Positions 9,696 to 38,677 of a DNA stretch of 64,000 nt are shown here, in pieces (positions within the stretch are counted from its first letter, which is position 1; each line of letters starts with the position of its first letter). A model generated the notes under the pieces. It saw only the letters and a program-made list of their open reading frames with translations, searched no databases and was not told where the DNA came from. Made by a program: the position numbers and the translations under genes. The stretch is from Christensenella sp. Its GTDB lineage: Bacteria; Bacillota; Clostridia; Christensenellales; CAG-138. The stretch spans positions 34,224 to 98,223 of the forward strand of contig JAYFPQ010000017.1 of the NCBI GenBank assembly GCA_034927595.1, given 5' to 3'.

Positions 9696-9750
9696 TTTCA
9701 TCATCTCCTGATAATTAATACGCTTAGCGATATATCGGTTAACGTAATAG

Positions 9751-9779: not shown

Positions 9780-9791
9780 GTAGTCATAGCT

Positions 9792-9823
9792 AAAAAAATA
9801 CCCCCGCTCACGAAGCAGGGGTA
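9792..9823 (-). terminator. rho-independent terminator downstream of the LysM gene
   Basis: Minus strand reads TACCCCTGC-TTCGTGA-GCGGGGGTA followed by TTTTTTT. Confidence 0.65.
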
Positions 9824-9844
9824 AATCGTCTACGATGGAAGAAA

Positions 9845-10165: not shown

Positions 10166-10370
10166 TACAACAAAACCCTCCTTCAATAAATTGCTTTCCT
10201 CACTACGTTTGGATTGTTCAATCAAGTAAACTGTGTTTCACGAGAAATGTCTGTCTGAATTATACAATGGGAATAAACCATGTCGCAATAGATAGATGGA
10301 TGATAGTACCAGAAAGAAAAGTGTTTCGATTTTGGATTTGCTTTTTCACGTAGTTGTGCTATCATGATTT

Positions 10371-10385
10371 CGTTCGTAGGGCGAA
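10371..10385. promoter_or_regulatory. palindrome GTTCGTAGGGCGAAC (copy 1), candidate MarR/FabT-like operator or leader hairpin
   Basis: It extends to a 7-5-7 inverted repeat (TCGTTCG-TAGGG-CGAACGA) followed by ATTTTTTT. It lies about 40 nt upstream of the MarR start. A near-identical copy sits at 11163..11177. Confidence 0.5.
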
Positions 10386-10423
10386 CGATTTTTTTACGCG
10401 AGCTTGGAGAGGAAGTTACACCC

Positions 10424-10873
10424 ATGACCGATCAGGAGATTGAACTGCTGCTGAATCAGGCACTCAAGGATATGTTCTATAGCGTGCTGAGATTGCAGGA
10501 GCAGAGCGTTTCGAAGCTGGCAAAGGGAAACCTGAGCCGAACGGAGATGCACGCGCTGGAGATTGTTCAGGATCTTCCGGAGGCGACGCTTACGCAGATT
10601 TCGGATATTCTCGGCATCACGAAGGCGACGCTGAGCGTCTCCGTGAACCGTCTCGTCGAGAAGGGGTTCCTGCAAAAGCACCGCTCCGAAACGGACGGGC
10701 GAAAGAGCATTCTGCGGCTGACCGAAACCGGCGAGGCAATGTGCAAAAAGCATACCCAGTTTCACGACATGCTCATTCACAGCGTGTTGCGGGATTTCAA
10801 GGTTGCAGAGTATCCCGAGGTGCTTAAATCGATGCAGGCGCTTGTGAACTTTTTCAACCACCTGCGTGTGTGA
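10424..10873 (+). CDS. MarR family transcriptional regulator (FabT-like by position)
   Basis: Track ORF is 10364..10873. The ATG at 10424 follows a GGAGAGGAAG RBS. The winged HTH reads LSRTEMHALEIV..TLTQISDILGITKATLSVSVNRLVEKGFLQK. It sits directly upstream of the acc/fab operon. Confidence 0.8.
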   Translation: MTDQEIELLLNQALKDMFYSVLRLQEQSVSKLAKGNLSRTEMHALEIVQDLPEATLTQISDILGITKATLSVSVNRLVEKGFLQKHRSETDGRKSILRLTETGEAMCKKHTQFHDMLIHSVLRDFKVAEYPEVLKSMQALVNFFNHLRV

Positions 10874-11053
10874 TTCTGCATAACAAGCTCTTACATTCGG
10901 CTCTTCGTTTGCCGGAGATGAAATAGAAATCTCAAAGAAACAAGCGATTTTCTGGAGTTCGAACGAACCGGTCGATCGTTTCTTAACATAACAGAAGAAC
11001 CAGTATATAAAAACCACAACTTCACATTTCACTGTCGGTAAACGGCCATAGCC

Positions 11054-11082
11054 TTGACAAGCGAAAACCCGCGTGCTATGAT
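11054..11082 (+). promoter_or_regulatory. candidate promoter of the acc-fab operon
   Basis: TTGACA (11054..11059), a 17-nt spacer ending in TGC (extended -10), then TATGAT (11077..11082). Confidence 0.55.
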
Positions 11083-11091
11083 TCTGCGCAA

Positions 11092-11110
11092 GTTAGTTAG
11101 CACTACTAAC
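11092..11110. promoter_or_regulatory. inverted repeat GTTAGT-N7-ACTAAC at the predicted transcription start
   Basis: 6-bp arms are perfectly complementary. It lies immediately downstream of the -10 hexamer. Confidence 0.45.
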
Positions 11111-11162
11111 GATAAGCGGGGGATCATTTTTTTATTATTTCCGCAAGTCGTTTACCCAAATA

Positions 11163-11177
11163 GTTCGTAGTGCGAAC
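11163..11177. promoter_or_regulatory. palindrome GTTCGTAGTGCGAAC (copy 2)
   Basis: Identical to 10371..10385 at 14 of 15 positions. It lies about 45 nt upstream of the accB start. Confidence 0.5.
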
Positions 11178-11222
11178 GAAACGCGGACTTATACTTTTTT
11201 ATATCCGAAAGGAACCCATTGA

Positions 11223-11639
11223 ATGGAACTTGACACAATCTTCCGGTTGATGGACCGAGCGGAATCCTCGTCTTTCTCGAAGGTTGAAGTGCAAATGGGC
11301 GATCTGAGGTTGGTGTTGGAACGGGGCGCTTTGGCGTCCGCGCCGGCATTTGCTCCTGTGCCCGCAGCGACCCCGGAACCGGCCGAACCGAAGGAACTGG
11401 ACGCGATTCGCTCGCCCATCTCCGGCGTGTTTTACCTGGCCAAGGAACCCGGCGCGGAGCCGTTTGTTCAACCGGGCAGCCGCGTGAGTAAGGGCGACAC
11501 CCTCTGCATCATCGAAGCCATGAAGACGATGAACGAGATTCGCGCACCGCGTGCGGGCGTTGTTACCGCCATTCTCGCCAAGGACAGCGCAACGGTCACC
11601 GCCGGGGATCCGCTCTTTGCGCTCGGCGAAGGAAACTGA
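11223..11639 (+). CDS. accB: acetyl-CoA carboxylase biotin carboxyl carrier protein
   Basis: 138 aa. A Pro/Ala linker is followed by the biotinyl-lysine motif CIIEAMKTMNEI. Confidence 0.9.
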   Translation: MELDTIFRLMDRAESSSFSKVEVQMGDLRLVLERGALASAPAFAPVPAATPEPAEPKELDAIRSPISGVFYLAKEPGAEPFVQPGSRVSKGDTLCIIEAMKTMNEIRAPRAGVVTAILAKDSATVTAGDPLFALGEGN

Positions 11640-11641
11640 AC

Positions 11642-13003
11642 ATGCAGACCGTATTAGTGGACAACCGCGGCGAAATCGCGGTTCGCGTGATTCGCACCTG
11701 CAAAAAACTGGGACTACGTACCATCGCCGTCTACTCGGAAAACGACGAGGGCGGTCTTCCCGTGCGCCTTGCGGACGAGAGCGTCTGCATCGGCCCGCGC
11801 CCGGCGGAGAAGAGCTATCTCAACATCGACAGCATCCTCGCCGCGGCGAAAGCCTACCGCGCGGATCTGATTCACCCCGGCGTCGGCTTTCTCTCGGAGA
11901 ACGAGGCGTTCGCGCTAGCCTGCGCAGAGGCGGGGATTCGCTTCATCGGCCCCGCGCCGGAGACCATGCTGCTGCTTGGCGACAAGCAGATGGCGCGAAA
12001 GACGATGATTTCTAACGGCTTTCCCGTTGTTCCCGGTTCGGACGGCACGGTGGACAGCCTGAAGGAAGCGCTCGTCATTGCCAAGGCGATTGGCTTTCCG
12101 CTGATGATCAAGGCGGCACGCGGCGGCGGCGGAAAGGGAATCCGCGTCGTCGAAGATGCTTCCGCGCTCGAACGGGAGTATACGCTGGTGCGCCGCGAGG
12201 CGGAGCTGGCGTTTGGCGACGGCAGCGTTTATCTGGAAGCGTACTTGCCCAACGCAAGACACATTGAGGTGCAGATTCTGGCGGACATGCACGGAAACGT
12301 GCTCCACCTCGGCACGCGCGAATGCACCCTGCAACGAAAGAACCAGAAGCTGCTCGAGGAAGCGCCCGCCGCGAACATCGGCGACGCGACGCGCGCGGCC
12401 ATGGAGCAGACCGCGGTGGAGATTGCCCGCTGCGTCGGGTACCAGAACGCGGGTACGGTGGAATGTCTGCTGGCGCAGGACGGGCGTTTCTTCTTTATGG
12501 AGATGAACGCCCGCATTCAGGTGGAACACCCCGTGACGGAGAGCATCTTCGGAATCGATCTGATCAAGGCGCAGATTCAGGTTGCCTTGTCGCACCATAT
12601 TCGCGTTTCACAGGAGCAACTCGTGTCCCGCGGGCACGCGATAGAGTGCCGCATCAACGCGGAGTGCCCCGCCGAGCAGTTCCGGCCTTCGCCGGGCGTG
12701 CTGCTAAACGTGGTGCTGCCGGGCGGACAGGGAATCCGCGTCGACAGCGGCTACGTGGTGGGGGACGAGATTTCGCCATTCTATGATTCCATGGTGCTCA
12801 AACTGATTGCTACGGGGGACGACCGCGACGAGGCGATTCGCCTCAGCAGCGCGGCGCTTTCGGAACTGCGCATCGACGGCATTCTCCACAACGCGGAGTT
12901 TGCGCGCGCCATGCTGGCCGATCCGGACGTGCGCGCGGGCAAGGTGCACACCAAGTGGATTGAAGAGGTCTTTCTGGACCGCTATCTGAGGGCAAGAGTA
13001 TGA
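11642..13003 (+). CDS. accC: acetyl-CoA carboxylase biotin carboxylase
   Basis: 453 aa. Motifs: NRGEIAVRVIRTCKKLG, GGGGKGIRVV, ARIQVEHPVTE. Starts 2 nt after accB. Confidence 0.92.
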   Translation: MQTVLVDNRGEIAVRVIRTCKKLGLRTIAVYSENDEGGLPVRLADESVCIGPRPAEKSYLNIDSILAAAKAYRADLIHPGVGFLSENEAFALACAEAGIRFIGPAPETMLLLGDKQMARKTMISNGFPVVPGSDGTVDSLKEALVIAKAIGFPLMIKAARGGGGKGIRVVEDASALEREYTLVRREAELAFGDGSVYLEAYLPNARHIEVQILADMHGNVLHLGTRECTLQRKNQKLLEEAPAANIGDATRAAMEQTAVEIARCVGYQNAGTVECLLAQDGRFFFMEMNARIQVEHPVTESIFGIDLIKAQIQVALSHHIRVSQEQLVSRGHAIECRINAECPAEQFRPSPGVLLNVVLPGGQGIRVDSGYVVGDEISPFYDSMVLKLIATGDDRDEAIRLSSAALSELRIDGILHNAEFARAMLADPDVRAGKVHTKWIEEVFLDRYLRARV

Positions 13004-24157: not shown

Positions 24158-24178
24158 GTAACGCTGTCACTTTTCAGA

Positions 24179-24221
24179 TTGACAAATCTTGATTTGACGA
24201 GTAAGATGAATATAAATCAAG
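24179..24221 (+). promoter_or_regulatory. promoter plus inverted repeat upstream of arsR
   Basis: TTGACA (24179..24184), a 17-nt spacer, TAAGAT (24202..24207). The inverted repeat CTTGATTT (24188..24195) / AAATCAAG (24214..24221) brackets the -10. Confidence 0.55.
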
Positions 24222-24244
24222 TATTTTTGATGTGAGGAAATGGA

Positions 24245-24559
24245 ATGGAATCTTCTTATCTGCGCGACGCCAAGGTGTTTAAGGCGTTTTGCGACGAAAA
24301 CCGGCTGCGTATTTTGGAGCGATTGCGCGGCGGGGAGAAGTGCGCCTGCAAACTGACCGAGGATCTTGAGATTGGCCAGAGCGCGCTGTCCTACCACATG
24401 AAGATTCTCGTGGAGTCCGGCGTGGTAGCCGCGCGGCAGGAGGGCAAGTGGACGCACTATAGCCTCTGCGAAACGGGCAGCGCGTATGCGCTCTCTCTGC
24501 TTCGGGCAATCACCACCCCGCTGGAGACGCAGGACGAAGACGCCTGCTGCAATCAATAA
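24245..24559 (+). CDS. arsR: ArsR/SmtB family metalloregulator
   Basis: 104 aa. FKAFCDENRLRILERLRGGEKCACKLTEDL carries a CxC metalloid site in the position of the ELCVCDL motif. Also SALSYHMKILVESG. The C-terminal tail is DEDACCNQ. Confidence 0.85.
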   Translation: MESSYLRDAKVFKAFCDENRLRILERLRGGEKCACKLTEDLEIGQSALSYHMKILVESGVVAARQEGKWTHYSLCETGSAYALSLLRAITTPLETQDEDACCNQ

Positions 24560-24583
24560 TAGAGAATAGAAAGATAGACGAAC

Positions 24584-25606
24584 ATGACCTTTGTGCAAGT
24601 GTTAAAAACAATTTGGGACTTTTTCCAACATCAGGTGCTCGCCATGCAGTGGCTCAACGAGTTGCTGGGGCGGATGCTGACCTCGTTCGGACTGGACACG
24701 GCGAACCGCTGGGTCGGCAGCCTGCAATTTTTCCTTTACGACGTGATTAAGATTACGATTCTGCTCTGCACGCTGATCTTTGTGATCAGCTACATTCAGA
24801 GCTTCTTTCCGCCGGAACGCAGCAAAAAAATCCTCGGCCGGTTTCGTGGCATCGGCGCAAACATCGTCGCCGCGCTGCTGGGTACGGTTACGCCGTTTTG
24901 CTCCTGCTCGTCCATTCCGCTGTTCATCGGCTTTACCTCGGCGGGGCTGCCGGTCGGCGTTACGTTTTCGTTTCTGATTTCGTCGCCCATGGTCGATCTG
25001 GGTTCTTTGGTGCTCTTAATGAGCATCTTCGGCGCGAAGGTTGCGGTGATCTATGTGGTATTTGGCCTCGTCATCGCGGTGCTCGGCGGCACGCTGATCG
25101 AGAAACTGCACATGGAGCGGCATGTCGAAAGTTTTATTCTCACCGCGGGCAGTGTGGACATCGACTCGCCCACGCTGACCATTCGCGAACGGTTGATCTA
25201 CGCCAAAGAGCAGATGGTCAATACCTTCAAGAAGGTGTTTCCATATATCCTGATCGGCGTCGGCATCGGCGCGGTGATTCATAACTGGATTCCGGAAACG
25301 TGGATCGTCACCGTGCTGGGCAACAAAAACCCCTTTGGCGTCGTGCTGGCTACGTTGATTGGCGTGCCGATGTACGCGGACATCTTTGGCACGATTCCCA
25401 TCGCGGAGGCGCTGTTTACCAAGGGGGCGCAGCTTGGGTCGGTGCTGTCGTTTATGATGGCGGTGACCACGCTCTCGCTGCCGTCGATGATCATGCTTCG
25501 TAAGGCCGTCAAGCCGAAACTCCTCGCGCTGTTCATCGCAATCTGCACCGCAGGGATCATTCTGGTTGGTTATTTATTCAACGCGCTTCAGCCGTTGATT
25601 GCATAG
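24584..25606 (+). CDS. arsP: ArsP-type permease (DUF318 family)
   Basis: 340 aa polytopic protein. It contains the vicinal-Cys motif TPFCSCSSIPLF characteristic of ArsP organoarsenical permeases. Confidence 0.75.
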   Translation: MTFVQVLKTIWDFFQHQVLAMQWLNELLGRMLTSFGLDTANRWVGSLQFFLYDVIKITILLCTLIFVISYIQSFFPPERSKKILGRFRGIGANIVAALLGTVTPFCSCSSIPLFIGFTSAGLPVGVTFSFLISSPMVDLGSLVLLMSIFGAKVAVIYVVFGLVIAVLGGTLIEKLHMERHVESFILTAGSVDIDSPTLTIRERLIYAKEQMVNTFKKVFPYILIGVGIGAVIHNWIPETWIVTVLGNKNPFGVVLATLIGVPMYADIFGTIPIAEALFTKGAQLGSVLSFMMAVTTLSLPSMIMLRKAVKPKLLALFIAICTAGIILVGYLFNALQPLIA

Positions 25607-25618
25607 GAGAAGAAACGT

Positions 25619-25897
25619 ATGGCAAAAACTTGGTACCCCGTTGTGGACTATTCCATCTGCTCGGAATGCGGCAGCTGCGTGGAGAAATGCCCGCACGCCG
25701 TCTACGACACGAACAAAGCCCCGACTCCGGTGGTGGTAGCTCCGGACGACTGCGTGGATCACTGCCACGGCTGCGGAAACCGCTGCCCGGTCGGTGCGAT
25801 TACCTATGTCGGAGAAGATACGGACTGGACGCCGCCGAACGGCGCGAAGACGCAGGAAGAAGAGGCTTGCTCCTGTGGGGGAAGCTGCTGTGGATGA
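25619..25897 (+). CDS. small 4Fe-4S ferredoxin-like protein with Cys-rich C-terminal tail
   Basis: 92 aa. CSECGSCVEKCP and CVDHCHGCGNRCP cluster motifs. The tail is EEEACSCGGSCCG. Confidence 0.75.
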   Translation: MAKTWYPVVDYSICSECGSCVEKCPHAVYDTNKAPTPVVVAPDDCVDHCHGCGNRCPVGAITYVGEDTDWTPPNGAKTQEEEACSCGGSCCG

Positions 25898-26468
25898 GGA
25901 GCAAAAGGACAAAAGAAGCATTCTTCTGAAAATCCTGGTGCTGACGATGATTCTCGTGGCGATTGGTACCATCTGGGTCATCAAAAACGGGATTCCTGTT
26001 CGAAACGCCGCCGAAACGCAGACACTGGAACCAAGCGCTACAGCAGCGGACACGACGACGGAAAACACCGGCTTTGCGCTGGAGGTGGAGTCCATCGATC
26101 TGGCGGCGCTGCTGTCTGCCCGGCTTCCAATCGTTCTCGACTTTGGGTCGGATTCCTGCATTCCCTGTCAGCAGATGGCGCCGGTGCTGCAAAGCGCCAA
26201 TGCGGACTATCAGGGCAAGGCGATCGTCCAGTTTCTGGATGTTCGAAAATATCCGGACGCGGTGGGCAACTTTCCCGTGCAGGTGATTCCGACGCAGTTT
26301 TTCATCAACGCGGACGGAACGCCTTATGTTCCGAATGAGGAACTGGGCGTGGAGTTTATCCTGTATCGTACCAAGGACACGCAGCAGCACGTATTTACCG
26401 CGCATCAGGGCGCTCTGACCAGCGAGGCGCTGGACGCAATTCTGGCGGACATGGGTGCGGGCAAATGA
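25890..26468 (+). CDS. membrane-anchored thioredoxin-fold protein (TlpA/ResA-like, CxxC)
   Basis: Track ORF is 25794..26468 and overlaps the ferredoxin gene. GTG at 25890 follows GGGGGAAG. TM anchor ILLKILVLTMILVAIGTIWVI. Redox motif DFGSDSCIPCQ. The start codon is uncertain. Confidence 0.7.
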   Translation: MDEEQKDKRSILLKILVLTMILVAIGTIWVIKNGIPVRNAAETQTLEPSATAADTTTENTGFALEVESIDLAALLSARLPIVLDFGSDSCIPCQQMAPVLQSANADYQGKAIVQFLDVRKYPDAVGNFPVQVIPTQFFINADGTPYVPNEELGVEFILYRTKDTQQHVFTAHQGALTSEALDAILADMGAGK

Positions 26469-27154
26469 TCGACGCTTGGCTGGAACAGATTGGTCAGCTC
26501 ATCGGTCAGAGTCTTTGGCTGGCGCCGTTGCTTGCCTTGCTCGCGGGGGTGCTCACCTCGTTTACGCCCTGCGCGCTGTCCAGCATTCCTCTCGTGATTG
26601 CGTATGTTGGCGGCACCGGCGTCGAGCCGAAGAAAGCGGCGAAGCTTTCGCTCGTCTTTGCGCTCGGTTCGGCGGTTACGTTTACGGTGCTTGGCGTGGT
26701 TGCCGCGAGCATCGGGTATCTCATCGGCGTTGGCGCGAAGTGGTGGTACCTCGTGCTCGGCGCGCTGATGGTGCTCATGGCGCTACAGACATGGGGAATC
26801 GTGAACCTTGTTCCCTCGACCTATCTGACCGGAAGGAGCAAACGGCGCGGATATCTCGGTGCGTTGCTCACGGGAATGCTCGGCGGGCTGTTCTCGTCTC
26901 CTTGTGCAACGCCCGTATTGGTTGCTTTGCTGGCGGTCGCGGCGGGCAGCGGCAGTCTGCTCCGGGGAACTATGCTCCTGCTGCTCTACGGCGTCGGCCA
27001 CGGCGCGCTTGCTGTTCTGGCGGGGTCGTCGATTGGCGCGGTGAACAAGCTCACACAAAGCGAGCGGTATGGTGCACTCTCCTGTGTACTCAAGATTGTG
27101 TTGGGCGTGCTGATCTTGCTCATTGGACTGTACCTGTTCTATTTGGGATTCTAA
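26465..27154 (+). CDS. ccdA: CcdA/DsbD-family transmembrane thiol:disulfide electron transporter
   Basis: 229 aa. Motifs: LAGVLTSFTPCALSSIPLVIAYV and GGLFSSPCATPVL (two conserved Cys in TM helices). ATGA overlap with the upstream gene. Confidence 0.85.
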   Translation: MIDAWLEQIGQLIGQSLWLAPLLALLAGVLTSFTPCALSSIPLVIAYVGGTGVEPKKAAKLSLVFALGSAVTFTVLGVVAASIGYLIGVGAKWWYLVLGALMVLMALQTWGIVNLVPSTYLTGRSKRRGYLGALLTGMLGGLFSSPCATPVLVALLAVAAGSGSLLRGTMLLLLYGVGHGALAVLAGSSIGAVNKLTQSERYGALSCVLKIVLGVLILLIGLYLFYLGF

Positions 27155-27238
27155 AGGCAAGAATTCCAAATTAGGATTTAACAAAACGAAAACAAAATTG
27201 ATTTAGAATAAAAGAGAATTCGAAAGGAAATAATTATT

Positions 27239-27592
27239 ATGGCACTCTTTGGAAAACGGAAAGAAAAAGAAGAACCGAAATCTTCCTGCTGCTGCGGCGC
27301 GGGCTGCGACTGCAACAGCATGGAACAAGCGGAAAGCGCGAAGACGGAAGGTGCTTCCGTAAAGGTGCTCGGCAGCGGCTGCCAGAAGTGCAACGCGCTG
27401 GAAGCGGCGACCAAGGAAGCGCTCGCCCAGCTTGGTATGGACACCACGATTGAGCACGTAACCGATTTTGCGAAGATCGCAAGTTATGGCGTGATGACGA
27501 CGCCCGCGCTGGTCGTGGACGGCAAAGTCGTTTCCTACGGCAAGGTGCTCAAGACCGAGGAAGTCGTCGCGATTCTCAAGAAAATTCGATAA
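27239..27592 (+). CDS. thioredoxin_3-type redox-active disulfide protein with Cys-rich N-terminal extension
   Basis: 117 aa. The core VKVLGSGCQKCNALE...YGVMTTPALVVDGKVV resembles the small glutaredoxin-like proteins common next to ArsP-type permeases. The N-terminal extension is KSSCCCGAGCDCNS. Confidence 0.75.
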   Translation: MALFGKRKEKEEPKSSCCCGAGCDCNSMEQAESAKTEGASVKVLGSGCQKCNALEAATKEALAQLGMDTTIEHVTDFAKIASYGVMTTPALVVDGKVVSYGKVLKTEEVVAILKKIR

Positions 27593-27622
27593 CAAGAACG
27601 AACGAGGGGGACAGGGATTTGT

Positions 27623-28678
27623 ATGGAAGCGAAAAAAAGCTCCGGCATTGGTTTCTTTGAAAAATATCTGACGCTCTGGGTCATTCTCTGCATGGTTGCC
27701 GGCGTATTGATCGGGCGGTTTTTGCCCGACGTTCCGGCGTTTTTAGGCAAGTTTGAGTACGCGAACGTTTCCATTCCCATTGCGATTCTGATTTGGCTGA
27801 TGATTTACCCCATGATGCTCAAGGTGGATTTCCAGAGCATTCGGGACGTCGGCAAAAATCCAAAGGGGCTGTTCGTCACGTGGGTCACCAACAGGCGGAT
27901 CAAACCGTTTACGATGTTTGGCATCGCCTGGCTGTTTTTCTTCGTAATTTTCAAGACACTGATTCCGGCCGACCTGGCCAAGGACTATCTCGCGGGGGCA
28001 ATTCTGCTTGGCGCCGCGCCCTGCACGGCAATGGTCTTCGTTTGGAGCCATCTGACCAAGGGCAACGCGGCCTATACGGTGGTGCAGGTTGCGACGAACG
28101 ACCTGATCATCCTCGTCGCGTTTACGCCGATTGTCGCACTGTTGCTCGGCATTGGCGGGGTAAAGATTCCCTGGGACACGCTGCTGCTCTCCGTTGCGCT
28201 GTTTGTCGTGATTCCGCTCGTCGGCGGCATGCTCACGCGAAACACCGTGATTAAAAAGCGCGGGCTGGAATACTTTGAAAAAGGCTTTCTGCCGAAGTTC
28301 AGCAATGTCACCATCGCGGGGCTGCTGCTTACGCTCGTGATCATCTTCTCTTTCCAGGGCAAGGTGATTCTGGAAAACCCGCTGCACATCGTGCTGATCG
28401 CCGTGCCGCTCGTGATTCAGACGTTCCTGATCTTCTTTATCGCCTATGGCGCAAGTAGGCTTCTCAAACTGCCGCACGACATCGCCGCGCCCGCGGGCAT
28501 GATTGGCGCTTCCAACTTCTTTGAACTCGCGGTTGCGGTTGCGATATCGCTGTTTGGGGCGAAGAGCCCCGTTGCGCTGGCAACCATCGTTGGCGTGCTG
28601 GTGGAGGTCCCCGTTATGCTGACGCTGGTGAAAATTGCAAATCGAACCACGCACTGGTTCCCCGAATCGAACAAATAG
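27623..28678 (+). CDS. acr3: ACR3 family arsenite efflux transporter
   Basis: 351 aa. Motifs: FFEKYLTLWVILCMVAGVLIG, GAAPCTAMVFVW (conserved Cys), NFFELAVAVA (conserved Glu). Confidence 0.88.
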   Translation: MEAKKSSGIGFFEKYLTLWVILCMVAGVLIGRFLPDVPAFLGKFEYANVSIPIAILIWLMIYPMMLKVDFQSIRDVGKNPKGLFVTWVTNRRIKPFTMFGIAWLFFFVIFKTLIPADLAKDYLAGAILLGAAPCTAMVFVWSHLTKGNAAYTVVQVATNDLIILVAFTPIVALLLGIGGVKIPWDTLLLSVALFVVIPLVGGMLTRNTVIKKRGLEYFEKGFLPKFSNVTIAGLLLTLVIIFSFQGKVILENPLHIVLIAVPLVIQTFLIFFIAYGASRLLKLPHDIAAPAGMIGASNFFELAVAVAISLFGAKSPVALATIVGVLVEVPVMLTLVKIANRTTHWFPESNK

Positions 28679-28722
28679 GATAGAATGAATTCATCAGAAA
28701 TTCGCTTGAGGAGGCGCGGCAT

Positions 28723-30369
28723 ATGAGAATTGTCATCATTGGCGCAGTGGCGGCGGGAACGTCCGCCGCGGCGAAGGCCAGACGCAACACCGAGGACGCG
28801 CAGATTACGGTCTACGAGAAGGATCGCTTCATTTCGTATTCCGGCTGCGGCATGCCGTATTTCCTCGGCGGCGAGGTTGCGCATGCCGAAGAACTGACTC
28901 CGCGTGACCCTGCATTCTTTTTGAGTAAGTACAACGTTGAGATCAAAACCGAGCACGAGGTGCTTGCCGTTTCGCCGGGGACCAAGAGCCTCTCGGTGAA
29001 GAATCTGCGCACAGGTGAGTTCTTTACGGACGTTTACGACAAGCTCATCCTCGCGACGGGCGCGCGCGCGGTCACCCCGCCGATTCCCGGACGCGATCTG
29101 GAGCACGTGTTCACGCTGCGCAACATCAACGACATGCTGAAGATTCACGCGTTTCTCGATTTGCACAAGCCGAAGACGGCGGCGATTGTCGGCACGGGGT
29201 TCATCGGACTGGAGATGTGCGAAAACCTTCGCAATCTTGGCGTTTCGGTAACCCTGCTCGAGAAACTCCCGCAGGTCACGCCGGGGCTGGACCCCGACAT
29301 GGCGGTGCACGTGGAAGAGCATCTCAAGTCAAGCGGAGTTGCGGTGTATACCGGAGCGTCGATTCAGGAGATCACCCAAGATGCGGTGCTACTCGCGGAC
29401 GGAACGCGCATACCCTCCGAACTAACCCTGCTTTCCACGGGTGTTCGCCCGAACGTCGATCTCGCTTCGGACGCGGGCGTGAAGCTCGGCACCTCCGGTG
29501 CAATTCTCGTCAACGACCGAATGGAGACCAACGTGGCCGACGTCTCCGCCTGCGGGGACTGCGTTGAGCAGTTTCACGTGGTGACCGGCAAGCAGGTCTA
29601 TCGCCCGCTGGGGTCCACCGCGAACAAGACGGGCCGCATCGCGGGGGATTGCATCACCGGCGGATCGCTGCGCTACCGCGGCACGCTCGGTACGGGCATC
29701 TTCCGCGTGCTGGGGCTCACCGTCGGGCAGACGGGACTGAGTGAACGCGAAGCGCGCGAGGCGGGCTACGACGTCGTCTTTTGCCACAACACCAAACCGG
29801 ACAAACCGGAATACCTCGGCGGCAGGGAGATGACGATCAAAGCGGTTGCCGACCGCGCGACCGGGCGGATGCTCGGCGCACAGATCGTCGGCGAGAGCGG
29901 CGTGGACAAGCGAATTGACGTGTTTGCCACCGCGATTACCTATGGCGCGAAGGCGGAGGATCTGTTTCATCTGGATCTGGCGTATGCGCCACCGTTTGCC
30001 ACAACAAAGGATCCGGTCGCGTATACCGGCATGATCCTCGAGAACGCGATTCATGGCGGTAAGCCGTTGATGGGAGCCACCGAGCTGGATGCAAGAAAAA
30101 ACGCAGGTGAGTCGGTAATCGTGATCGACACACGCGTACCGGCTCAGTATGAAAAAGCTCATGTCGACGGCGCGAGGAACATTCCGCATTCGGATGTTCG
30201 AGCGGCTGTGGGTTCGCTGGACAAGGATTCCATCATCGTGACCTACTGCAACAAGGGGGTAACCGGCAACGCCGTGCAGAACATTCTGCTCAATCGCGGC
30301 TTCAAGCGCGTGTACAACCTCTCCGGCGGATTCAAGCAGTACTCCGCCGTGCGGAGAAAGCGCATCTAG
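28723..30369 (+). CDS. CoA-disulfide reductase-type FAD/NAD(P)H oxidoreductase with C-terminal rhodanese domain
   Basis: 548 aa. Motifs: IVIIGAVAAGTSAAAKARR, redox Cys in SYSGCGMPY, second dinucleotide fold AAIVGTGFIGLE. The C-terminal rhodanese has VTYCNKGVTG. Confidence 0.85.
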   Translation: MRIVIIGAVAAGTSAAAKARRNTEDAQITVYEKDRFISYSGCGMPYFLGGEVAHAEELTPRDPAFFLSKYNVEIKTEHEVLAVSPGTKSLSVKNLRTGEFFTDVYDKLILATGARAVTPPIPGRDLEHVFTLRNINDMLKIHAFLDLHKPKTAAIVGTGFIGLEMCENLRNLGVSVTLLEKLPQVTPGLDPDMAVHVEEHLKSSGVAVYTGASIQEITQDAVLLADGTRIPSELTLLSTGVRPNVDLASDAGVKLGTSGAILVNDRMETNVADVSACGDCVEQFHVVTGKQVYRPLGSTANKTGRIAGDCITGGSLRYRGTLGTGIFRVLGLTVGQTGLSEREAREAGYDVVFCHNTKPDKPEYLGGREMTIKAVADRATGRMLGAQIVGESGVDKRIDVFATAITYGAKAEDLFHLDLAYAPPFATTKDPVAYTGMILENAIHGGKPLMGATELDARKNAGESVIVIDTRVPAQYEKAHVDGARNIPHSDVRAAVGSLDKDSIIVTYCNKGVTGNAVQNILLNRGFKRVYNLSGGFKQYSAVRRKRI

Positions 30370-30407: not shown

Positions 30408-30440
30408 AAAACCACGCGGGAGATTCCTGCGTGGTTTCTT
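30408..30440. terminator. bidirectional terminator between the ars island and the VOC gene
   Basis: AAAACCACGCGGGA-GAT-TCCTGCGTGGTTT forms a 13-bp stem with one G-T pair. It is flanked by A and T runs. Confidence 0.7.
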
Positions 30441-30460: not shown

Positions 30461-30838
30461 TTATTCGTGCGATTTGTCGCCGATTTCGACGATATGGCCA
30501 TCCGGGTCGTACACGCGAAATAGCGTCTCGCCCCAGGCCGTGAGTTGCAGCGGAAAGAACACCTCAAAGCCCGCGGTAATCAGGCGCTCCTGCAGTTCCG
30601 GCAAATGGTCGGAGGTAAAGTAGAGGTCGAGATTATCCCGCCCCATTGCCTCGCCAGAATAGGGCTTCTGTAGATACTCATAAAACAGGTCCGCGCGATG
30701 CAGCCCCAGATTTCCTTCGAGCAGCACAAACGTGTCAAAGTCCTCTTTGATCCCGATGCCAAGCAGACCGTGGTAAAAGGCCTTCGACGCCTCCATGTCC
30801 CGAACAAACAGAATGGGGTTGCGAAATTGAACCGGCAT
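30461..30838 (-). CDS. VOC (glyoxalase/bleomycin-resistance fold) family protein
   Basis: 125 aa. PILFVRDMEASKAFYHGLLG ... DPDGHIVEI. Confidence 0.75.
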   Translation of the reverse strand: MPVQFRNPILFVRDMEASKAFYHGLLGIGIKEDFDTFVLLEGNLGLHRADLFYEYLQKPYSGEAMGRDNLDLYFTSDHLPELQERLITAGFEVFFPLQLTAWGETLFRVYDPDGHIVEIGDKSHE

Positions 30839-32064: not shown

Positions 32065-32472
32065 ATGGCAAAGGTTTTGCGAGCGAACGGCATGAACAAG
32101 TGCATCGGGTGTTTCACCTGCATGCTCACGTGTGCCGCGGTCAATAAAAAGGAGCATACGACGTTTAAGAGCGCGATTCGCGTCCGCACCACGGGCGGTT
32201 TAACAAGCAGCTTTGTCAGCATCGTCTGCCTTGCCTGCACGGACGAGCGCGCCTGCGCGGAGGCCTGCCCGACGGGCGCGCTGAAGCCGAGAAAGGGTGG
32301 CGGCGTGCTGCTGGAACCGGACAAGTGCATCGGCTGCCGCAAGTGCATCGACGCCTGCATCGTCGGCGCCGTTGGGTTCGACGAGGATTTGAAGGTGCCT
32401 ATCATCTGCAAACACTGCGGCATCTGCGCGCAGTTCTGCCCGCATGAGTGCCTGACGATGGAGGAGGTTTGA
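32065..32472 (+). CDS. 4Fe-4S dicluster ferredoxin-type electron-transfer subunit
   Basis: 135 aa with several CxxCxxCxxxC motifs (CIGCFTCMLTC, CIGCRKCIDAC, CKHCGICAQFCP). Own promoter candidate is TTGACA..TATACT near 31989..32016. Confidence 0.85.
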   Translation: MAKVLRANGMNKCIGCFTCMLTCAAVNKKEHTTFKSAIRVRTTGGLTSSFVSIVCLACTDERACAEACPTGALKPRKGGGVLLEPDKCIGCRKCIDACIVGAVGFDEDLKVPIICKHCGICAQFCPHECLTMEEV

Positions 32473-32475
32473 GCC

Positions 32476-34260
32476 ATGTTCAACGAAGACAAACGCATCC
32501 TGTTCATCGACTTAAACACCGAAAAGCTGCGCATTGAGAAGCGTCCGGACCTCAACGAATATCTCGGCGGGGTCGGCATCGCGATGAAGCTCTTCGAAGA
32601 GAACGTTCACGTAGACCTTCCGCCGCTGCATGAAACCCAGCCGGTGGTCTTTGCCGTAGGCGCGCTGACCTCGATTTTCCCCGTCATGACCAAGACGGTT
32701 GCCGTGTTCTACTCGCCGCATACCGGCGAACTGGGCGAGAGCTACGCGGGCGGCCGCCTCGCGTTTGCGATGATGGACGCCGGGTTCGACGCCATCGTCA
32801 TCACCGGAAAATCGAAGAAACCGACCTACATTTCGGTTCGCTCGGACAGCGTTTCGTTTCGCGATGCGCGCGCCCTCTGGGGACTGCCGAGCACGGTCAT
32901 CGGCCGCATCATTCGCGAGCGGGAGCCGGGCCCCGGCAAGCGCAGCATCATTCGCATCGGCCCCGCGGGCGAAAACGGCGTGACCTACGCGAGCGTCTGC
33001 GTGGACACCTATCGCCACTTTGGGCGGCTTGGTCTCGGCGCGGTGCTGGGGTCGAAGAACCTCAAAGCGATGCAGGTCTATGGCACGACGTCGATTCCGA
33101 TCAAGGACTTTACGGCGTACTGGAAGGCCTATCGCGAAATCTACAAGAAATGCACGGACACCGAGCTCATGCAGAAGTATCACGACCTCGGCACGTCCAT
33201 CAACATTGAGCCGCTCAACGCGCTCGGCGTATTGCCGACCAAGAACCTCAAGCAGGCGGTGTTTGAGCATGGCGACAAGATCAGCGGCGAGCAGTTTGCC
33301 GAGTGCAATCTGGTTCGAAAGATGGCCTGCGTCGGCTGCCCGGTGGGCTGCATCCACATTGGTCAGTTCCGCCGCGAGTTTGACAAGGCGGGGCACGAGT
33401 ACGAGTCCATCAGTGTCGGCTACGATTACGAGCTGATCTTTGCGCTCGGCAGCTACCTTGGCATCAAGTCGACGGACGAAATTCTGGAGCTGATCGACGA
33501 GGTCGAGGAGCTGGGCATGGACGCGATGTCCGCCGGTGTTGCGCTCGGTTGGGCGACGGAAGCGTTCCAGCGGGGGCTCGTCACCGAAAAAGAAACCCTC
33601 GTTCCGCTCAAATTCGGCGAGAAGGACAACTACCTCAAGGCGCTGCGCTACATCGCCTGCATGGAAAACGACTTTTACTCCGCGCTGGGCAAGGGCGTTG
33701 CCCATGCGTCGAGCGTCTATGGCGGCAAGGACTATGCCATGCAGATTGCGGGCAACGAGATGGCGGGGTATCATACGGGCTACGGCGCGCTGATCGGCAT
33801 GGCCTGCGGCGCGCGGCACTCGCACCTTTGCAACGGCGGGTACTCGATTGACCAGGGCTTGAAGACGCCGGACGTCGACGTGATCGTCGACAAGATGTTC
33901 AAGGAAGAGGTCGACCGCTGCATGCTCAACTCCCTTGTCATGTGCCTCTTTGCGCGAAAGGTCTACGACCGTGACACGATTCTTTTGGCGCTCAACTCGG
34001 TTGGGTACCAGTTTACGAGCGACGATTTGTCGCACATTGCCGAGAAAATCTATGCAACGAAGATTCGCGTCAAGCGCGCCATGGGATTTGAGCAGGAGAA
34101 GGTGGAGTTTCCGAAGCGCTTCTTCGAAACACCCAGCCTGCACGGTCTGCTGGATGAGGCAACCGCCTACGAAGCGCAGCGTAAGTTCAACGCACTGACC
34201 AACGCGCTGGTATCGAAATACGAACCCGCGCCCGAACCGAAAGCGGCAAGCGACAAGTAA
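32476..34260 (+). CDS. aldehyde:ferredoxin oxidoreductase family (tungsto/molybdopterin) enzyme
   Basis: 594 aa. AOR N-terminal domain (ILFIDLNTEKLRIEKRPDLNEYLGGVGIAMKL). The Fe-S ligand region is ACVGCPVGCIH. Starts 3 nt after the ferredoxin gene. Confidence 0.88.
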   Translation: MFNEDKRILFIDLNTEKLRIEKRPDLNEYLGGVGIAMKLFEENVHVDLPPLHETQPVVFAVGALTSIFPVMTKTVAVFYSPHTGELGESYAGGRLAFAMMDAGFDAIVITGKSKKPTYISVRSDSVSFRDARALWGLPSTVIGRIIREREPGPGKRSIIRIGPAGENGVTYASVCVDTYRHFGRLGLGAVLGSKNLKAMQVYGTTSIPIKDFTAYWKAYREIYKKCTDTELMQKYHDLGTSINIEPLNALGVLPTKNLKQAVFEHGDKISGEQFAECNLVRKMACVGCPVGCIHIGQFRREFDKAGHEYESISVGYDYELIFALGSYLGIKSTDEILELIDEVEELGMDAMSAGVALGWATEAFQRGLVTEKETLVPLKFGEKDNYLKALRYIACMENDFYSALGKGVAHASSVYGGKDYAMQIAGNEMAGYHTGYGALIGMACGARHSHLCNGGYSIDQGLKTPDVDVIVDKMFKEEVDRCMLNSLVMCLFARKVYDRDTILLALNSVGYQFTSDDLSHIAEKIYATKIRVKRAMGFEQEKVEFPKRFFETPSLHGLLDEATAYEAQRKFNALTNALVSKYEPAPEPKAASDK

Positions 34261-36080: not shown

Positions 36081-36959
36081 TTAGAGGTATAGAATCGCCA
36101 GCATGGCAACGACCAGCAGCCCAACCATCGCCAGCAGCCAACGGTCGCCAAAGAGCACTTCGACCGGGTCGCCGTCCGAGCGTCCCTCGGCGGTCAGGCT
36201 GTATTTCAGGCAGATTAAAATTACGAGCGGAACCGTCCAGAGCAGGTAGTCCCCGGAGGCGTGCTTCGCGGAAATCCCGTCCACGCACCAGAGGGAGTAA
36301 AACAGAATTCCGAGCGTCAGGCACATATACATGCCCTTGTCGAGAAACGAGTAGCTGTACCAGTTCAGCACCGCGCGCGTCTCTCCCTGCGTTTCGCCGG
36401 ACTGCAGCGCGCGCAGCTCGTTTCTGCGCTTGCCAAGCCCCATGAAGAACGACAGCGCGACGACGGTGAGATACAGCCAGTCGGAAATCGAAATCGAAAC
36501 GAGCGCCGAGCCATACAGCAGACGCAGTAGGAAACCGAGCATCAGAATCGTGATGTCCAGAATGGGCACGTTCTTCAGCCCCAGACTGTAGCCGACGTTG
36601 AACAACAGGTAGACCACCATGAAGATCCACGGCAGCAGCGCGCGCCCGCAGGCAAACGCGTTGACCACCAGCGCGAGAACGAGCAGCACCGCCGCGATGA
36701 CACGCGCCGTCGCAATCGGCACCGCACCGCTCGCGATGGGGCGGTTCTTCTTCGTCGGATGCAGGCGATCCTTCTCCACGTCCCGAATGTCATTGATGAT
36801 GTACACGGCGGACGACAGCAGCGAGAATGCGACGAAGCCAAGTAACACCGGAATCAGTAGCGACAGGTTGGAGAGCTGACGCCCGAACACGAGCGGCAGA
36901 AACAGCAGGACGTTCTTGCTGTAGTGCTTTACGCGCAATAGCTTAAAATACGGCTTCAT
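36081..36959 (-). CDS. UbiA-family prenyltransferase, decaprenyl-phosphate phosphoribosyltransferase-like
   Basis: 292 aa polytopic protein. MKPYFKLLRVKHYSKNVLLFLPLVFG plus the Asp-rich motif YIINDIRDVEKDRLHPTKKNRPIASG, as in DPPR synthases. Confidence 0.75.
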   Translation of the reverse strand: MKPYFKLLRVKHYSKNVLLFLPLVFGRQLSNLSLLIPVLLGFVAFSLLSSAVYIINDIRDVEKDRLHPTKKNRPIASGAVPIATARVIAAVLLVLALVVNAFACGRALLPWIFMVVYLLFNVGYSLGLKNVPILDITILMLGFLLRLLYGSALVSISISDWLYLTVVALSFFMGLGKRRNELRALQSGETQGETRAVLNWYSYSFLDKGMYMCLTLGILFYSLWCVDGISAKHASGDYLLWTVPLVILICLKYSLTAEGRSDGDPVEVLFGDRWLLAMVGLLVVAMLAILYL

Positions 36960-37009
36960 GCGTCACCTCCAAAATAGATGGGTGTTCGGCGATTCTCGTT
37001 GAAAGGGGG

Positions 37010-38677
37010 TCAGGAAACGGGGTAGTATTGCAGTCCAAAGCGAAGGATGTCCGCAAGACCCAGCGTATTCAGGTAAGCCAGCGCGAGGATACCCGCGCCA
37101 AGCAGACCATATTGCAGCGGGCGAATCTGCCGGAACAACCGCTTGATCAGCAGCAGAATCAACGACACAAACGCCCAGCCAAAGTAGAGCGTATAGAGCA
37201 CCAGCCCGTTTTCCGAGGTGCCCCAGCCGAGCACGCAGAGCAGCAGAAACGAGCAGGCGACCCATGCGGCGCAGATGCGCGCAAAGACGCTCTTCCGGTT
37301 CAGCAGGAATCCGGCGATTGCCGCGGCAAGAACGGCAAACCCGCCGACGCTCCAGCTCGTTACCTCCAGTTGATGGTACACGGCCATGCCGGAGTCGTAA
37401 TGGAACACCTGCGCCGCCGGGGCAACGAAGCACGAGGCGACAAAGCGGATGTACTGCATCAGCCGGGCAAGGAACGGAAGCTTATCTCCCGCAAATTGGA
37501 GCAGAAACTGAAGGTTCGCGGCGGTGGTCATCACCATGGCCGCGCGCCCGAACAGAAGGGCGATCAGCACAAACCAGAGAACGGCGAGCGCGCCTTGCTG
37601 AAACCGCTGCTTCCAGGATTTGCCGCTTGGAACGAGAACAATCGACACGCCGCTGATCAAAATCGAGCCGGTGGCGGCGATCCAGGCGGTGTCCCGACCC
37701 TCGGTTTCGCCGGACACAAACAGCCAGACCAGCAAGATCAGCCAGAACACGGAGAAGATGTATTGCTCCATGTTCAGCAAAAACAACAGCGTTGGAAACA
37801 TGACACTCAGCAGAACCAGCGACAGCGCCTTGCCTCCGCCGGACGTGCCGAACATGCGAACGATCAGAATCAAAGCCAGCAACAAAAGCGCAGCCTGCAC
37901 AATTTGAAGCAGCGGCAGGTATACTGCCGGAAGCAACAGCAGGCGGGAAACGAGCGAAGCGCCGAGCGCAAACGGCGCGGCGAACACCCCAAAGAGCGGC
38001 TGGCGGATGTCGTTTTCCGACGCGGCAACGTTGAGAAACACGTTTTGTTCCGTCAGGGAAGACGTATCACTCGTGTAGAGAATGTCGACTTTTTTCCAAA
38101 CGTTATCCGCCGAAGCATTCGGGTTTGAAAACACGCTTGTCTGGGAATAGACGACTACGATGGCGACGACGCAGAGCGCGAGCGCGACGAGAAAGAACCA
38201 GCGCTCGACCGCGTCCGTCTTTTGCAAAATGGCGCGCATCCGTGCGGAAAGCCAGCCAAGAAACCAGTAGAGATACACAAATAGCGCGAGAACGGCGACC
38301 AGCCCCGCAAGCGCGGAGGCTGCGGCGCCGTAGCGGCCGGCCAGATCGAGAATCAGCGGCTTTGCGCTTTCGGCGGCAAAGCTGTTGAGGTGCACCAGAA
38401 AGAGATTCGCATAAACCTCGGCCGCATAGGCGGCGAGCACGAGACTCAGCGCCGCGCGCCCCAGATGGAACGAGGCGAACACCCGCTCGAGAAACCGAAA
38501 GCGAAAGACGAGGAAGATCAGCGCGAGCACAACGAGCGGCAGGCTGGCCACGACCCAGACGAGTTCGCCCTTGACGGAGAGCAGCCCGGCAAGCGCGGTT
38601 GCCGAGAGCAAGAACAGCCAGCGAAACGCCTTGGTCGGCGTTTGATCTGCCTGTAGGAACAGATGGTTCATTCCCAA
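37010..38677 (-). CDS. large polytopic membrane protein, possible GT-C-type glycosyltransferase
   Basis: 555 aa, with at least 12 hydrophobic segments by eye. One hydrophilic loop contains ...VAASENDIRQPLFG. I recognise no family motif with certainty. It lies 50 nt upstream of the UbiA gene on the same strand. Confidence 0.5.
   Translation of the reverse strand: MGMNHLFLQADQTPTKAFRWLFLLSATALAGLLSVKGELVWVVASLPLVVLALIFLVFRFRFLERVFASFHLGRAALSLVLAAYAAEVYANLFLVHLNSFAAESAKPLILDLAGRYGAAASALAGLVAVLALFVYLYWFLGWLSARMRAILQKTDAVERWFFLVALALCVVAIVVVYSQTSVFSNPNASADNVWKKVDILYTSDTSSLTEQNVFLNVAASENDIRQPLFGVFAAPFALGASLVSRLLLLPAVYLPLLQIVQAALLLLALILIVRMFGTSGGGKALSLVLLSVMFPTLLFLLNMEQYIFSVFWLILLVWLFVSGETEGRDTAWIAATGSILISGVSIVLVPSGKSWKQRFQQGALAVLWFVLIALLFGRAAMVMTTAANLQFLLQFAGDKLPFLARLMQYIRFVASCFVAPAAQVFHYDSGMAVYHQLEVTSWSVGGFAVLAAAIAGFLLNRKSVFARICAAWVACSFLLLCVLGWGTSENGLVLYTLYFGWAFVSLILLLIKRLFRQIRPLQYGLLGAGILALAYLNTLGLADILRFGLQYYPVS

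Follow-up and report, generated by a model that had tools for sequence, protein, structure and literature searches.

A modular ArsR-type operon of anaerobic Clostridia in which a CoA-disulfide-reductase–rhodanese gene, and not a thioredoxin relay, alternates with arsC

Which gene, if any, occupies the place of the arsenate reductase in an arsenic-resistance operon that has two efflux permeases and several thiol-redox genes and lacks arsC? This question is raised by a 64,000-nucleotide stretch of DNA from Christensenella sp. (assembly GCA_034927595.1, contig JAYFPQ010000017.1, positions 34,224 to 98,223), which was analysed as a whole and is hereafter called the window. According to open reading frame listing and family scans, positions 24179-30369 of the window hold eight plus-strand genes: arsR, arsP (an ArsP-family permease), fdx (a ferredoxin), tmTrx (a membrane-anchored thioredoxin), ccdA, trx3 (a Thioredoxin_3 protein, Trx_3), acr3 and a gene for a fusion of CoA-disulfide reductase and rhodanese (CoADR-RHD). 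An earlier note on this DNA had proposed that the pair of CcdA and the anchored thioredoxin, which we call the relay, serves as an alternative to ArsC by handling arsenicals outside the cytoplasm, or else keeps the vicinal cysteines of ArsP in order. The comparison of related loci points elsewhere: it is CoADR-RHD, not the relay, that alternates with arsC next to acr3, and the best lead is that this enzyme would use NAD(P)H to reduce (thio)arsenate or persulfides and so supply Acr3.

The lack of ArsC, ArsD, ArsA and ArsM in the window, already stated in the note, was borne out. In tblastn searches of the complete 64 kb for LMW-PTP and Grx-type ArsC, the B. subtilis-type, R773-type and clostridial queries gave no match at E < 1 or E < 0.01, and the ArsA, ArsD and ArsM queries gave none either. 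The neighbourhoods of CoADR-RHD were then collected from a metagenome scan and two exact look-ups. Among acr3 loci with adequate flanks, arsC was found next to acr3 in none of the 15 that carry CoADR-RHD and in 13 of the 18 that do not (Fisher p = 3e-5, uncorrected for relatedness). Furthermore, no arsC was present within 8 kb in any of the 44 loci with CoADR-RHD at 50% identity or more, while genes for ars transporters or enzymes lay within the same distance in 31 of them.

CoADR-RHD also accompanies acr3 where the relay is missing, either as arsR-acr3-CoADR (L083, L085, L112) or as acr3-CoADR (L081, L082, L088, L097, L100). More elaborate layouts are arsR-CoADR-arsR-acr3 followed by an ArsN-like acetyltransferase gene (L087), arsM-arsR-CoADR...acr3-arsD (L093), arsR-arsD-arsA-CoADR (L101), arsR-arsP-trx3-acr3-CoADR (L098) and arsR-arsP-fdx::DUF2703-trx3-acr3-CoADR (L120). 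In L117/L118 (positions 4528-12439), the order MarR-arsM-GNAT(ArsN-like)-arsR-CoADR-arsR-acr3-arsD-arsA, again without arsC, is carried by a conjugative element with MobL and a TraG-type coupling protein, and its CoADR-RHD is identical on 23 contigs; this island adjoins an arsR-HMA-P-type ATPase unit. Another layout was seen in L099 (1941-4876) and L100 (5703-8986), in which a DsbD-like membrane protein with no Pfam match and a weak resemblance to TsoB precedes CoADR-RHD, together with two genes for half-size permeases and a 394-amino-acid ArsP_1 permease that contains an insert; acr3 likewise precedes CoADR-RHD in L100.

What kind of enzyme is encoded by the CoADR-RHD gene? The gene (28723-30369, plus strand) specifies 548 amino acids with Pyr_redox_2, Pyr_redox_dim and Rhodanese domains. 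Its redox cysteine, Cys42, lies in the motif SYSGCGMPY and is single, in place of a CxxxxC dithiol, and the rhodanese loop reads CNKGVTG. The closest solved relatives, with which it aligns end to end at E values of 1e-108 to 1e-112, are Npsr (3NTA), E. faecalis CoAPR (8A56) and B. anthracis BaCoADR-RHD (3ICR). However, the loop is unlike those of Npsr (CQVGLRG) and CoAPR (CHSGLRS) and departs from the CxxGxR pattern, and the cut-offs of the CoADR equivalogs were not reached (TIGR03385, 419 vs 579 bits; NF007123, 374 vs 458 bits). Nor is the loop of the seven-residue HCX5R type found in Acr2/Cdc25, as it has the six-residue length of sulfurtransferases and no Arg at +6. It resembles the loop of bovine thiosulfate sulfurtransferase, CRKGVTA. 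An exact-sequence look-up for the window protein returned no record; close homologues number in the thousands, and SYSGCGMPY and CNKG[VT]TG are common to all 120 best ones (at least 68% identity). The idea that CNKGVTG marks none but the ars-linked genes was rejected, as CoADR-RHD genes in non-ars contexts share the loop.

Two roles seem plausible for CoADR-RHD, which occupies the ArsC position of sister operons. In the first, NAD(P)H would reduce As(V)-level species, with FAD, Cys42 and the rhodanese cysteine as carriers, and so yield arsenite for Acr3; the route might be through monothioarsenate, by sulfane-sulfur transfer as with thiosulfate, or through arsenate itself. We regard it as unlikely, on present evidence, that CoADR-RHD is a functional ArsC alternative acting directly on thioarsenate or arsenate. 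An extension that, in our estimate, is also unlikely is that the CNKG[VT][TS]G clade constitutes a self-contained NAD(P)H-driven As(V)-level reductase that feeds Acr3 and has displaced ArsC in anaerobic Firmicutes of sulfidic habitats. The substrate of such a reductase would most plausibly be monothioarsenate, with the sulfane sulfur going to the rhodanese cysteine and the persulfide then being reduced to H2S, and possibly arsenate; the ferredoxin-fed CcdA relay would be a separate accessory beside it. The thioarsenate/persulfide chemistry suggested in the earlier note stays viable for CoADR-RHD in the cytoplasm and finds no support for the relay outside the cell.

In the second role, the enzyme would reduce persulfides or disulfides and would do so without an arsenite-sensitive dithiol, an assignment that we consider possible and still rather doubtful. 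In the corresponding rival explanation, CoADR-RHD never touches arsenic; arsenic stress would induce it as a CoA-persulfide/disulfide reductase, either to back up dithiol flavoenzymes with an arsenite-insensitive enzyme or for the management of the sulfide/persulfide that accompanies arsenic in sulfidic habitats. Its closest characterised relatives, Npsr and CoAPR at roughly 40% identity, are indeed persulfide reductases, the single redox cysteine fits such a function, some members with the same loop stand outside ars clusters, and one cluster, that of Fusibacter, has both the homologous gene pno and arsC. On the other hand, the complementarity to arsC next to acr3 is strict in the sampled loci, the minimal trio arsR-acr3-CoADR corresponds in layout to the classical arsR-acr3-arsC operon, and the loop is unlike that of the characterised persulfide reductases. 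We give this explanation some weight, as a serious candidate that nevertheless falls well short of likely. The rest of the probability belongs to other roles of the enzyme.

If CoADR-RHD takes the place of arsC, what is the position of the relay? The anchored thioredoxin has 943 homologues, and a profile from 23 sequences (alignment A1) retrieved 297 stretches from species-representative genomes, of which the best 80 (L001-L080) make up the relay locus set. A gene matrix was compiled for this set by tblastn, and layouts were compared in the 42 loci whose sequence extends for no less than 3 kb upstream and 6 kb downstream (full flanks). The matrix recorded ccdA in 77 of the 80 loci, arsR in 56, trx3 in 55, arsP in 45, fdx in 44, acr3 in 39, LMW-PTP arsC in 25 and CoADR-RHD in 12; ArsA, ArsD and ArsM were found in some relay loci by clustering of open reading frames. 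Among full-flank loci, arsC was present in 18 of 42, and in 17 of the 32 that are ArsR-linked. The commonest layout is the eight-gene order ending in acr3-arsC (11/42), and that of the window, ending in acr3-CoADR-RHD, comes next among the ars layouts (4/42). Because the relay and arsC co-occur, even in the commonest architecture, the relay does not substitute for ArsC. Neither can upkeep of the ArsP cysteines be its general role, because ArsP-Trx_3 without the relay is common and the relay occurs without arsP.

The order arsR-arsP-fdx-tmTrx-ccdA-trx3-acr3-(X) is conserved over dozens of species-level genomes. The best 80 loci belong almost entirely to metagenome bins of Clostridia/Bacillota, with three isolates among them (Anaerotignum neopropionicum DSM 3847, L061; Robinsoniella peoriensis, L075; and Clostridium sp. 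C105KSO13), and the genomes related to the window are mostly metagenome bins of anaerobic Clostridia. The first two isolates have the arsC version of the operon; a cultured carrier of the CoADR-RHD version is Clostridium sp. BNL1100. The nearest relatives, which suggest a Christensenellales-like member of the Clostridia, are an uncultured Christensenella sp. (L002/L010) and one metagenome-assembled genome of Clostridia (L001) that contains the entire island with its flanks at 95-100% amino-acid identity. A mobile-element origin of the window copy was considered and rejected: the flanks have no integrase or transfer gene and are syntenic with those of L001, and the GC content is in line with that of the surroundings.

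The island is a mosaic of three recurrent modules: M1, arsR with the ArsP-family permease and the ArsE-type Thioredoxin_3; M2, the membrane-anchored thioredoxin and CcdA, with or without the ferredoxin; and M3, acr3 with either arsC or CoADR-RHD. Each of them is found independently elsewhere, M1 and M2 alone, M2 also with arsR only, and M3 as arsR-acr3-CoADR-RHD. Among the full-flank loci, tmTrx-ccdA stands without any ars gene in 7/42 and arsR-tmTrx-ccdA only in 2/42, and annotated records of Monoglobus pectinilyticus and of a C. botulinum plasmid hold stand-alone trios of arsR, a permease and a "thioredoxin family protein". The locus is a widespread ars operon variant of anaerobic Clostridia and not a singular island.

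The anchored thioredoxin (25890-26468, plus strand; 192 amino acids; PF00085, 3e-10) most plausibly starts at the GTG at 25890, which is preceded by a putative GGGGGA ribosome-binding site. A transmembrane helix (residues 6-33) is joined by a disordered linker to a domain of classical thioredoxin fold, in which CIPC and a cis-Pro loop are found; the mean pLDDT of the AlphaFold model is 80, with more than 90 in the thioredoxin domain, the best Foldseek matches are thioredoxins of TrxA/Trx2 type, and DSCxPC and VIPTQ are invariant in alignment A1. Because a Lys/Arg cluster lies ahead of the helix, the protein is predicted to be N-in, C-out with the domain facing outward, which is the usual arrangement of CcdA clients. 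CcdA (26465-27154, plus strand; 229 amino acids; DsbD transmembrane-domain family) matches PF02683 at 1.6e-22 (80 bits vs a cut-off of 27) and carries its Pro-Cys cysteines in FTPCALSS and SSPCATP. The gene for the anchored thioredoxin, its presumed partner, lies immediately upstream, and the two are adjacent in 77/80 loci. Thioredoxin_3 (27239-27592, plus strand; 117 amino acids; MTH895/ArsE family) reaches 6.5e-28 with PF13192 and 99.2 bits with TIGR00412.2 (cut-off 62); its active site is GSGCQKC, and its CCCGAGCDC tail belongs to an N-terminal MALFGKK...CCCGGxCD segment with four to five cysteines that is conserved in most orthologues.

The ferredoxin (25619-25897, plus strand; 92 amino acids; Fer4 families) contains the [4Fe-4S] motifs CX2CX2CX3CP and CX3CX2CX3CP and ends in the Cys-rich sequence CSCGGSCCG. 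It was also compared with HgcB and rejected as such (NF040864, 29.4 bits vs a cut-off of 99), the likeness being confined to the two 4Fe-4S motifs and the Cys-rich tail. In 29 of the 80 loci anchored on the thioredoxin, the ferredoxin is fused to DUF2703 (PF10865), and single proteins that join it to LMW-PTP ArsC (Pfam Fer4 + LMWPc) were found in L057 (11792-12466), L041 (1756-2409) and L042. The latter fusions are a Rosetta-stone link that would connect the ferredoxin family of the island with arsenate reductase, and the two kinds of fusion tie the family to thiol chemistry and arsenate reduction. The DUF2703 fusion, which is the usual form, is 254 amino acids long, with a CxxC motif, a Cys-rich C-terminus and a weak resemblance to the NCBIfam "DF family (seleno)protein", and the window has the 92-residue short form; examples of the fusion are an open reading frame of L044 that runs from 788 to 24 nt upstream of tmTrx and another at 4706-5476 of L120.

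Our reading of the relay, offered tentatively and with less than even confidence, is that it forms a canonical path from CcdA to an external thioredoxin, with Trx_3 as the probable cytoplasmic partner, and would protect or repair exofacial thiols during arsenical export; trx3 accompanies the relay in about 30 of 33 ars-context loci. The reading put forward in the earlier note, in which ArsC is dispensable because the relay itself would act outside the cytoplasm as a reductant of arsenate, thioarsenates or organoarsenicals, appears improbable to us. The relay is intact and stands under the ArsR promoter of an operon without arsC, and its thioredoxin domain is predicted to face outward, all of which would suit such a function. 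Nevertheless, the frequent joint presence of relay and arsC and the occurrence of tmTrx-ccdA without ars genes speak against it, no exported arsenate-binding enzyme is encoded, and the production of trivalent species outside the cell would bring no obvious benefit.

A further proposal, for which we see similarly little likelihood, is that Trx_3, CcdA and the anchored thioredoxin pass a thiol-bound trivalent arsenical across the membrane, in the manner of MerT/MerP or of ArsG in ArsEFG. The NCBIfam names invite this idea, since the DsbD-family ArsG is an "aromatic aminobenzylarsenical efflux permease" and Thioredoxin_3 is "MTH895/ArsE"; As(III) could ride on the Cys-rich tails, and the close association of trx3 with the relay agrees with it. 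However, we rejected CcdA as an ArsG because it scores 39.8 bits against the cut-off of 200 of the corresponding model (NF040495, aromatic aminoarsenical efflux permease), whereas its score exceeds that required by the CcdA/DsbD Pfam model and both PC motifs are present. Moreover, its partner is a classical thioredoxin, which is the situation in systems for electron transfer, and the operon already has two dedicated arsenical permeases. The canonical CcdA path is the reading of the relay that we retain below.

Are the redox genes integral to the operon? The note had described nine co-directional, tightly spaced genes; direction and spacing stand, whereas the number does not, as its own list names eight and no ninth gene fits into the gaps. 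Each of the sequence motifs that it quoted was found in the translations. Spacing ranges from an overlap of 8 bases, between fdx and tmTrx, to a gap of 84; tmTrx and ccdA overlap by 4 nt, and 12 nt separate arsP from fdx. A promoter with a probable ArsR operator occupies 24174-24235 on the plus strand. The promoter itself, TTGACA-17-TAAGAT at 24179-24207, is the sole good sigma-70-like promoter of the region in the promoter scan and lies inside a 22-nt imperfect inverted repeat with half-sites TTGATTTGA / AAATCAAG. The window fits a layout of TTGACA, TTGATTTGA, -10 box and ATATCAA...TTTGATATGAGG that recurs 5' of arsR in about 35 related loci, and it is this inverted repeat that ArsR would bind. 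Between the upstream tetR and the promoter, an 8-bp GC-rich hairpin with a run of seven T was read by eye as terminator-like. At the other end, a hairpin at 30409-30437, AAACCACGC ... GCGTGGTTT, read from the sequence and not flagged in the consensus terminator scan, separates CoADR-RHD from a convergent glyoxalase-like gene and is the probable end of the operon. The scan gave no terminator-like site at the gene junctions, and an internal promoter ahead of trx3 was sought by the promoter scan without success.

The widest gap, between ccdA and trx3, is filled by an AT-rich element of 84 nt (27155-27238, plus strand) that is conserved only in the clade of the window: it is kept, at about 80 nt, in L001, L006 and L008-L010 and duplicated in L004, while the same gap measures 22-27 nt in other clades. 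The element carries gatttaacaaaacgaaaacaaaattgatttagaataaaag and also TTGATTTAG, which resembles an operator half-site. No Rfam match was obtained in the window.

In view of the gene overlaps, a gene order shared by more than 30 species-level genomes and the conserved operator, the redox genes are integral and not juxtaposed by chance. The note was right in seeing a single ArsR-type operon with two efflux permeases, ArsP-family and Acr3, without ArsC and with a relay of CcdA and an anchored thioredoxin; the genes sit behind one promoter/operator. We are highly confident that the locus is a single ars operon of this family under ArsR control and that the redox genes are an integral part of it. 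That they form a separately regulated unit placed here by chance is scarcely credible: M2 and M3 are indeed found independently in other loci and 84 nt precede trx3, but the overlaps, the short distance between arsP and fdx, the lack of a terminator-like site at any junction and the same order over dozens of species all argue otherwise.

The remaining genes are those of the regulator and the two permeases. ArsR (24245-24559, plus strand; 104 amino acids) matches HTH_5 PF01022 at 2.5e-14 (53 bits vs a cut-off of 22) and NF033788 at 82 bits (cut-off 55). Its EKCACKL motif places Cys33-x-Cys35 in helix alpha3, a CxC metalloid site of the R773 ELCVCDLC type from which the third R773 cysteine is absent; both residues are invariant in 49/49 orthologues, and a C-terminal pair, Cys101-Cys102, is kept in about 80-88% of them. 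Acr3 (27623-28678, plus strand; 351 amino acids; PF01758, 4e-40) passes the equivalog cut-off of TIGR00832 (384.5 vs 282.8 bits) and has a conserved cysteine in GAAPCTAMV; this family-level assignment makes it a putative arsenite/antimonite exporter.

The ArsP-family permease (ArsP_1; 24584-25606, plus strand; 340 amino acids) matches PF03773 at 3.2e-66 (224 bits) and reaches no NCBIfam equivalog cut-off, the SaoE and SO_0444 models both remaining below theirs. It has the vicinal-cysteine motif TPFCSC, a pair which Chen is said to have found important in ArsP in 2015. There are two arsP clusters, whose functions may differ (PMC6205960). In a transcriptome preprint on P. mercurii, PF13192 proteins were equated with ArsE, and an arsR-arsP-arsE operon was arsenic-induced (bioRxiv 10.1101/2022.10.17.512643). 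By analogy with the C. jejuni and P. mercurii data, ArsP and Trx_3 may be regarded as an organoarsenical unit.

How could these parts work together? Trivalent arsenicals would bind Cys33/Cys35 of ArsR, which would then leave its operator, a site overlapping the promoter. Acr3, as its family assignment indicates, would extrude arsenite, and the ArsP-type permease, with its Cys-tailed Trx_3 partner, might handle trivalent organoarsenicals. CcdA would supply the external anchored thioredoxin with reducing equivalents from a cytoplasmic thiol protein, probably Trx_3, which the ferredoxin might charge, so that exofacial thiols would be kept reduced during arsenical export; the relay would be an accessory and no replacement for ArsC, and CoADR-RHD would contribute one of the two roles given above. 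We hold this combination, an ArsR operon of a modular clostridial family working by these steps, as the best overall explanation and with moderate confidence.

Several points weigh against it. We know of no case in which a plain 2x[4Fe-4S] ferredoxin reduces disulfides directly. Our literature search turned up no experiments on either the relay or the CoADR-RHD flavoprotein. The locus samples were drawn in two ways, as the best 80 of the 297 stretches and by peptide patterns from the window's own protein, and the loci are interrelated; the samples are biased and not phylogenetically independent. CoADR-RHD genes with the same loop stand in non-ars contexts (L089, L109, L090, L091, L092), and the loop is of the short sulfurtransferase type and not the CX5R of Acr2/Cdc25, a conclusion also reached in PMC5525254. 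Finally, the exclusivity of arsC and CoADR-RHD is not absolute, because the cluster of Fusibacter sp. 3D3 holds pno-acr3-arsC-2, and arsC is found elsewhere in the compared genomes (PMC9751042; PMC5525254).

The interest of the question lies in the setting. Thioarsenates dominate arsenic speciation in sulfidic anoxic environments, and to our knowledge no enzyme is known that returns them to exportable arsenite. If the ars-linked CoADR-RHD reduces thioarsenate or arsenate, it would represent a new enzyme class in the arsenic cycle and another type of detoxifying arsenic reductase, with a mechanism of its own, and it would account for ars operons without arsC, which are common in Clostridia and are also carried by conjugative elements. 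For their part, the CcdA/thioredoxin relay under ArsR control and the ferredoxin fusions point to a candidate anaerobe-specific electron route from ferredoxin to thiols. Should these ideas fail, the locus would still be a well-defined, widespread and otherwise ordinary ars operon variant. Literature searches on thioarsenate with rhodanese found no enzymology, and those on CoADR-RHD with arsenic and on cytochrome c biogenesis protein with acr3 found nothing relevant.

Some neighbouring features of the window deserve mention. The gene convergent to the operon (30461-30838, minus strand) encodes a glyoxalase/bleomycin-resistance-fold protein of 125 amino acids and is also found downstream of the island in L001 and L010; it was considered as a C-As lyase of ArsI type and rejected because the protein has no cysteine at all. 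Outside the island, at 32065-34260, a gene for a 4Fe-4S protein is directly followed by one for a 594-amino-acid protein that, by eye, looks aldehyde:ferredoxin-oxidoreductase-like in translation; the pair is also present in L001. The region 36081-38677 (minus strand) encodes a Leu/Phe-rich polytopic membrane protein of 555 amino acids beside a UbiA-type prenyltransferase; it is ordinary and is the source of the AT skew of 0.40 at 37-38 kb. Low-GC stretches of 1 kb lie at 10001-11000 (0.47) and 50001-51000 (0.46), against a window mean of about 0.57.

How does the operon compare with known systems? CcdA-dependent extracytoplasmic thioredoxin pathways include CcdA-ResA/StoA in Bacillus and CcdA-Etrx in streptococci. 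The window shares with them a CcdA with two membrane cysteines encoded beside a signal-anchored thioredoxin; in contrast to these pathways, its pair stands under an ArsR operator in an ars operon, and the thioredoxin has the classical fold without the ResA/TlpA insert. With ArsEFG of Shewanella putrefaciens (Chen, Zhang, Rosen 2019; cited in PMC9144182) it has in common, judging by NCBIfam names, an ArsE-family Thioredoxin_3 and a DsbD-family membrane protein, although the window CcdA fails the ArsG model, as noted above. A nitro-reduction function has reportedly been described for ArsEF. Npsr, CoAPR and BaCoADR-RHD share with the window enzyme the FAD/NAD(P)H disulfide-reductase fold, the single redox cysteine and a C-terminal rhodanese with a catalytic cysteine; they differ in having the loop CxxGLR[GS] instead of CNKGVTG and SFANCGLPY instead of SYSGCGMPY, and in a cst/sulfur context instead of an ars one. 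The classical Firmicutes operon arsR-acr3(arsB)-arsC, in which the LMW-PTP ArsC is coupled to thioredoxin, resembles the window in the CxC ArsR, in Acr3 and in a third gene directly after the pump. In the window, that slot is taken by CoADR-RHD, and five extra genes (arsP, fdx, tmTrx, ccdA, trx3) precede acr3; sister operons with an identical upstream gene order carry LMW-PTP arsC in the same slot.

Both accessory sets had previously been noticed from genome context (PMC2963123; PMC5525254). A relay-type set within ars operons was described in eight instances, seven of them with arsC, and was proposed to support ArsC (PMC2963123); the same three determinants, proposed there as redox partners, recur in the window, which differs in lacking arsC and in adding the ferredoxin and CoADR-RHD. 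Serrano 2017 (PMC5525254) reported the CoADR-rhodanese "pno" of Fusibacter sp. 3D3 (WP_069871897; loop CNKGVTGN) as part of a conserved Firmicutes family of unknown function beside regulators and arsenical transporters, and weighed for it the role of an ACR2-like arsenate reductase, which was doubted in view of the different loop and the presence of arsC in those genomes. The present analysis contributes the division of the island into M1, M2 and M3, evidence that the relay does not stand in for ArsC, and the observation that next to acr3 it is arsC and CoADR-RHD that are complementary; it also adds the conserved operator and the ferredoxins fused to DUF2703 or to ArsC. The Fusibacter protein has the same domain architecture, the same CNKGVTG(N) loop and the same link to regulators and arsenical transporters as that of the window; its cluster, arsD-arsR-pno-acr3-arsC-2 (Acosta-Grinok 2022; PMC9751042), also contains arsC-2, whereas the window and all 44 examined loci have no arsC nearby.

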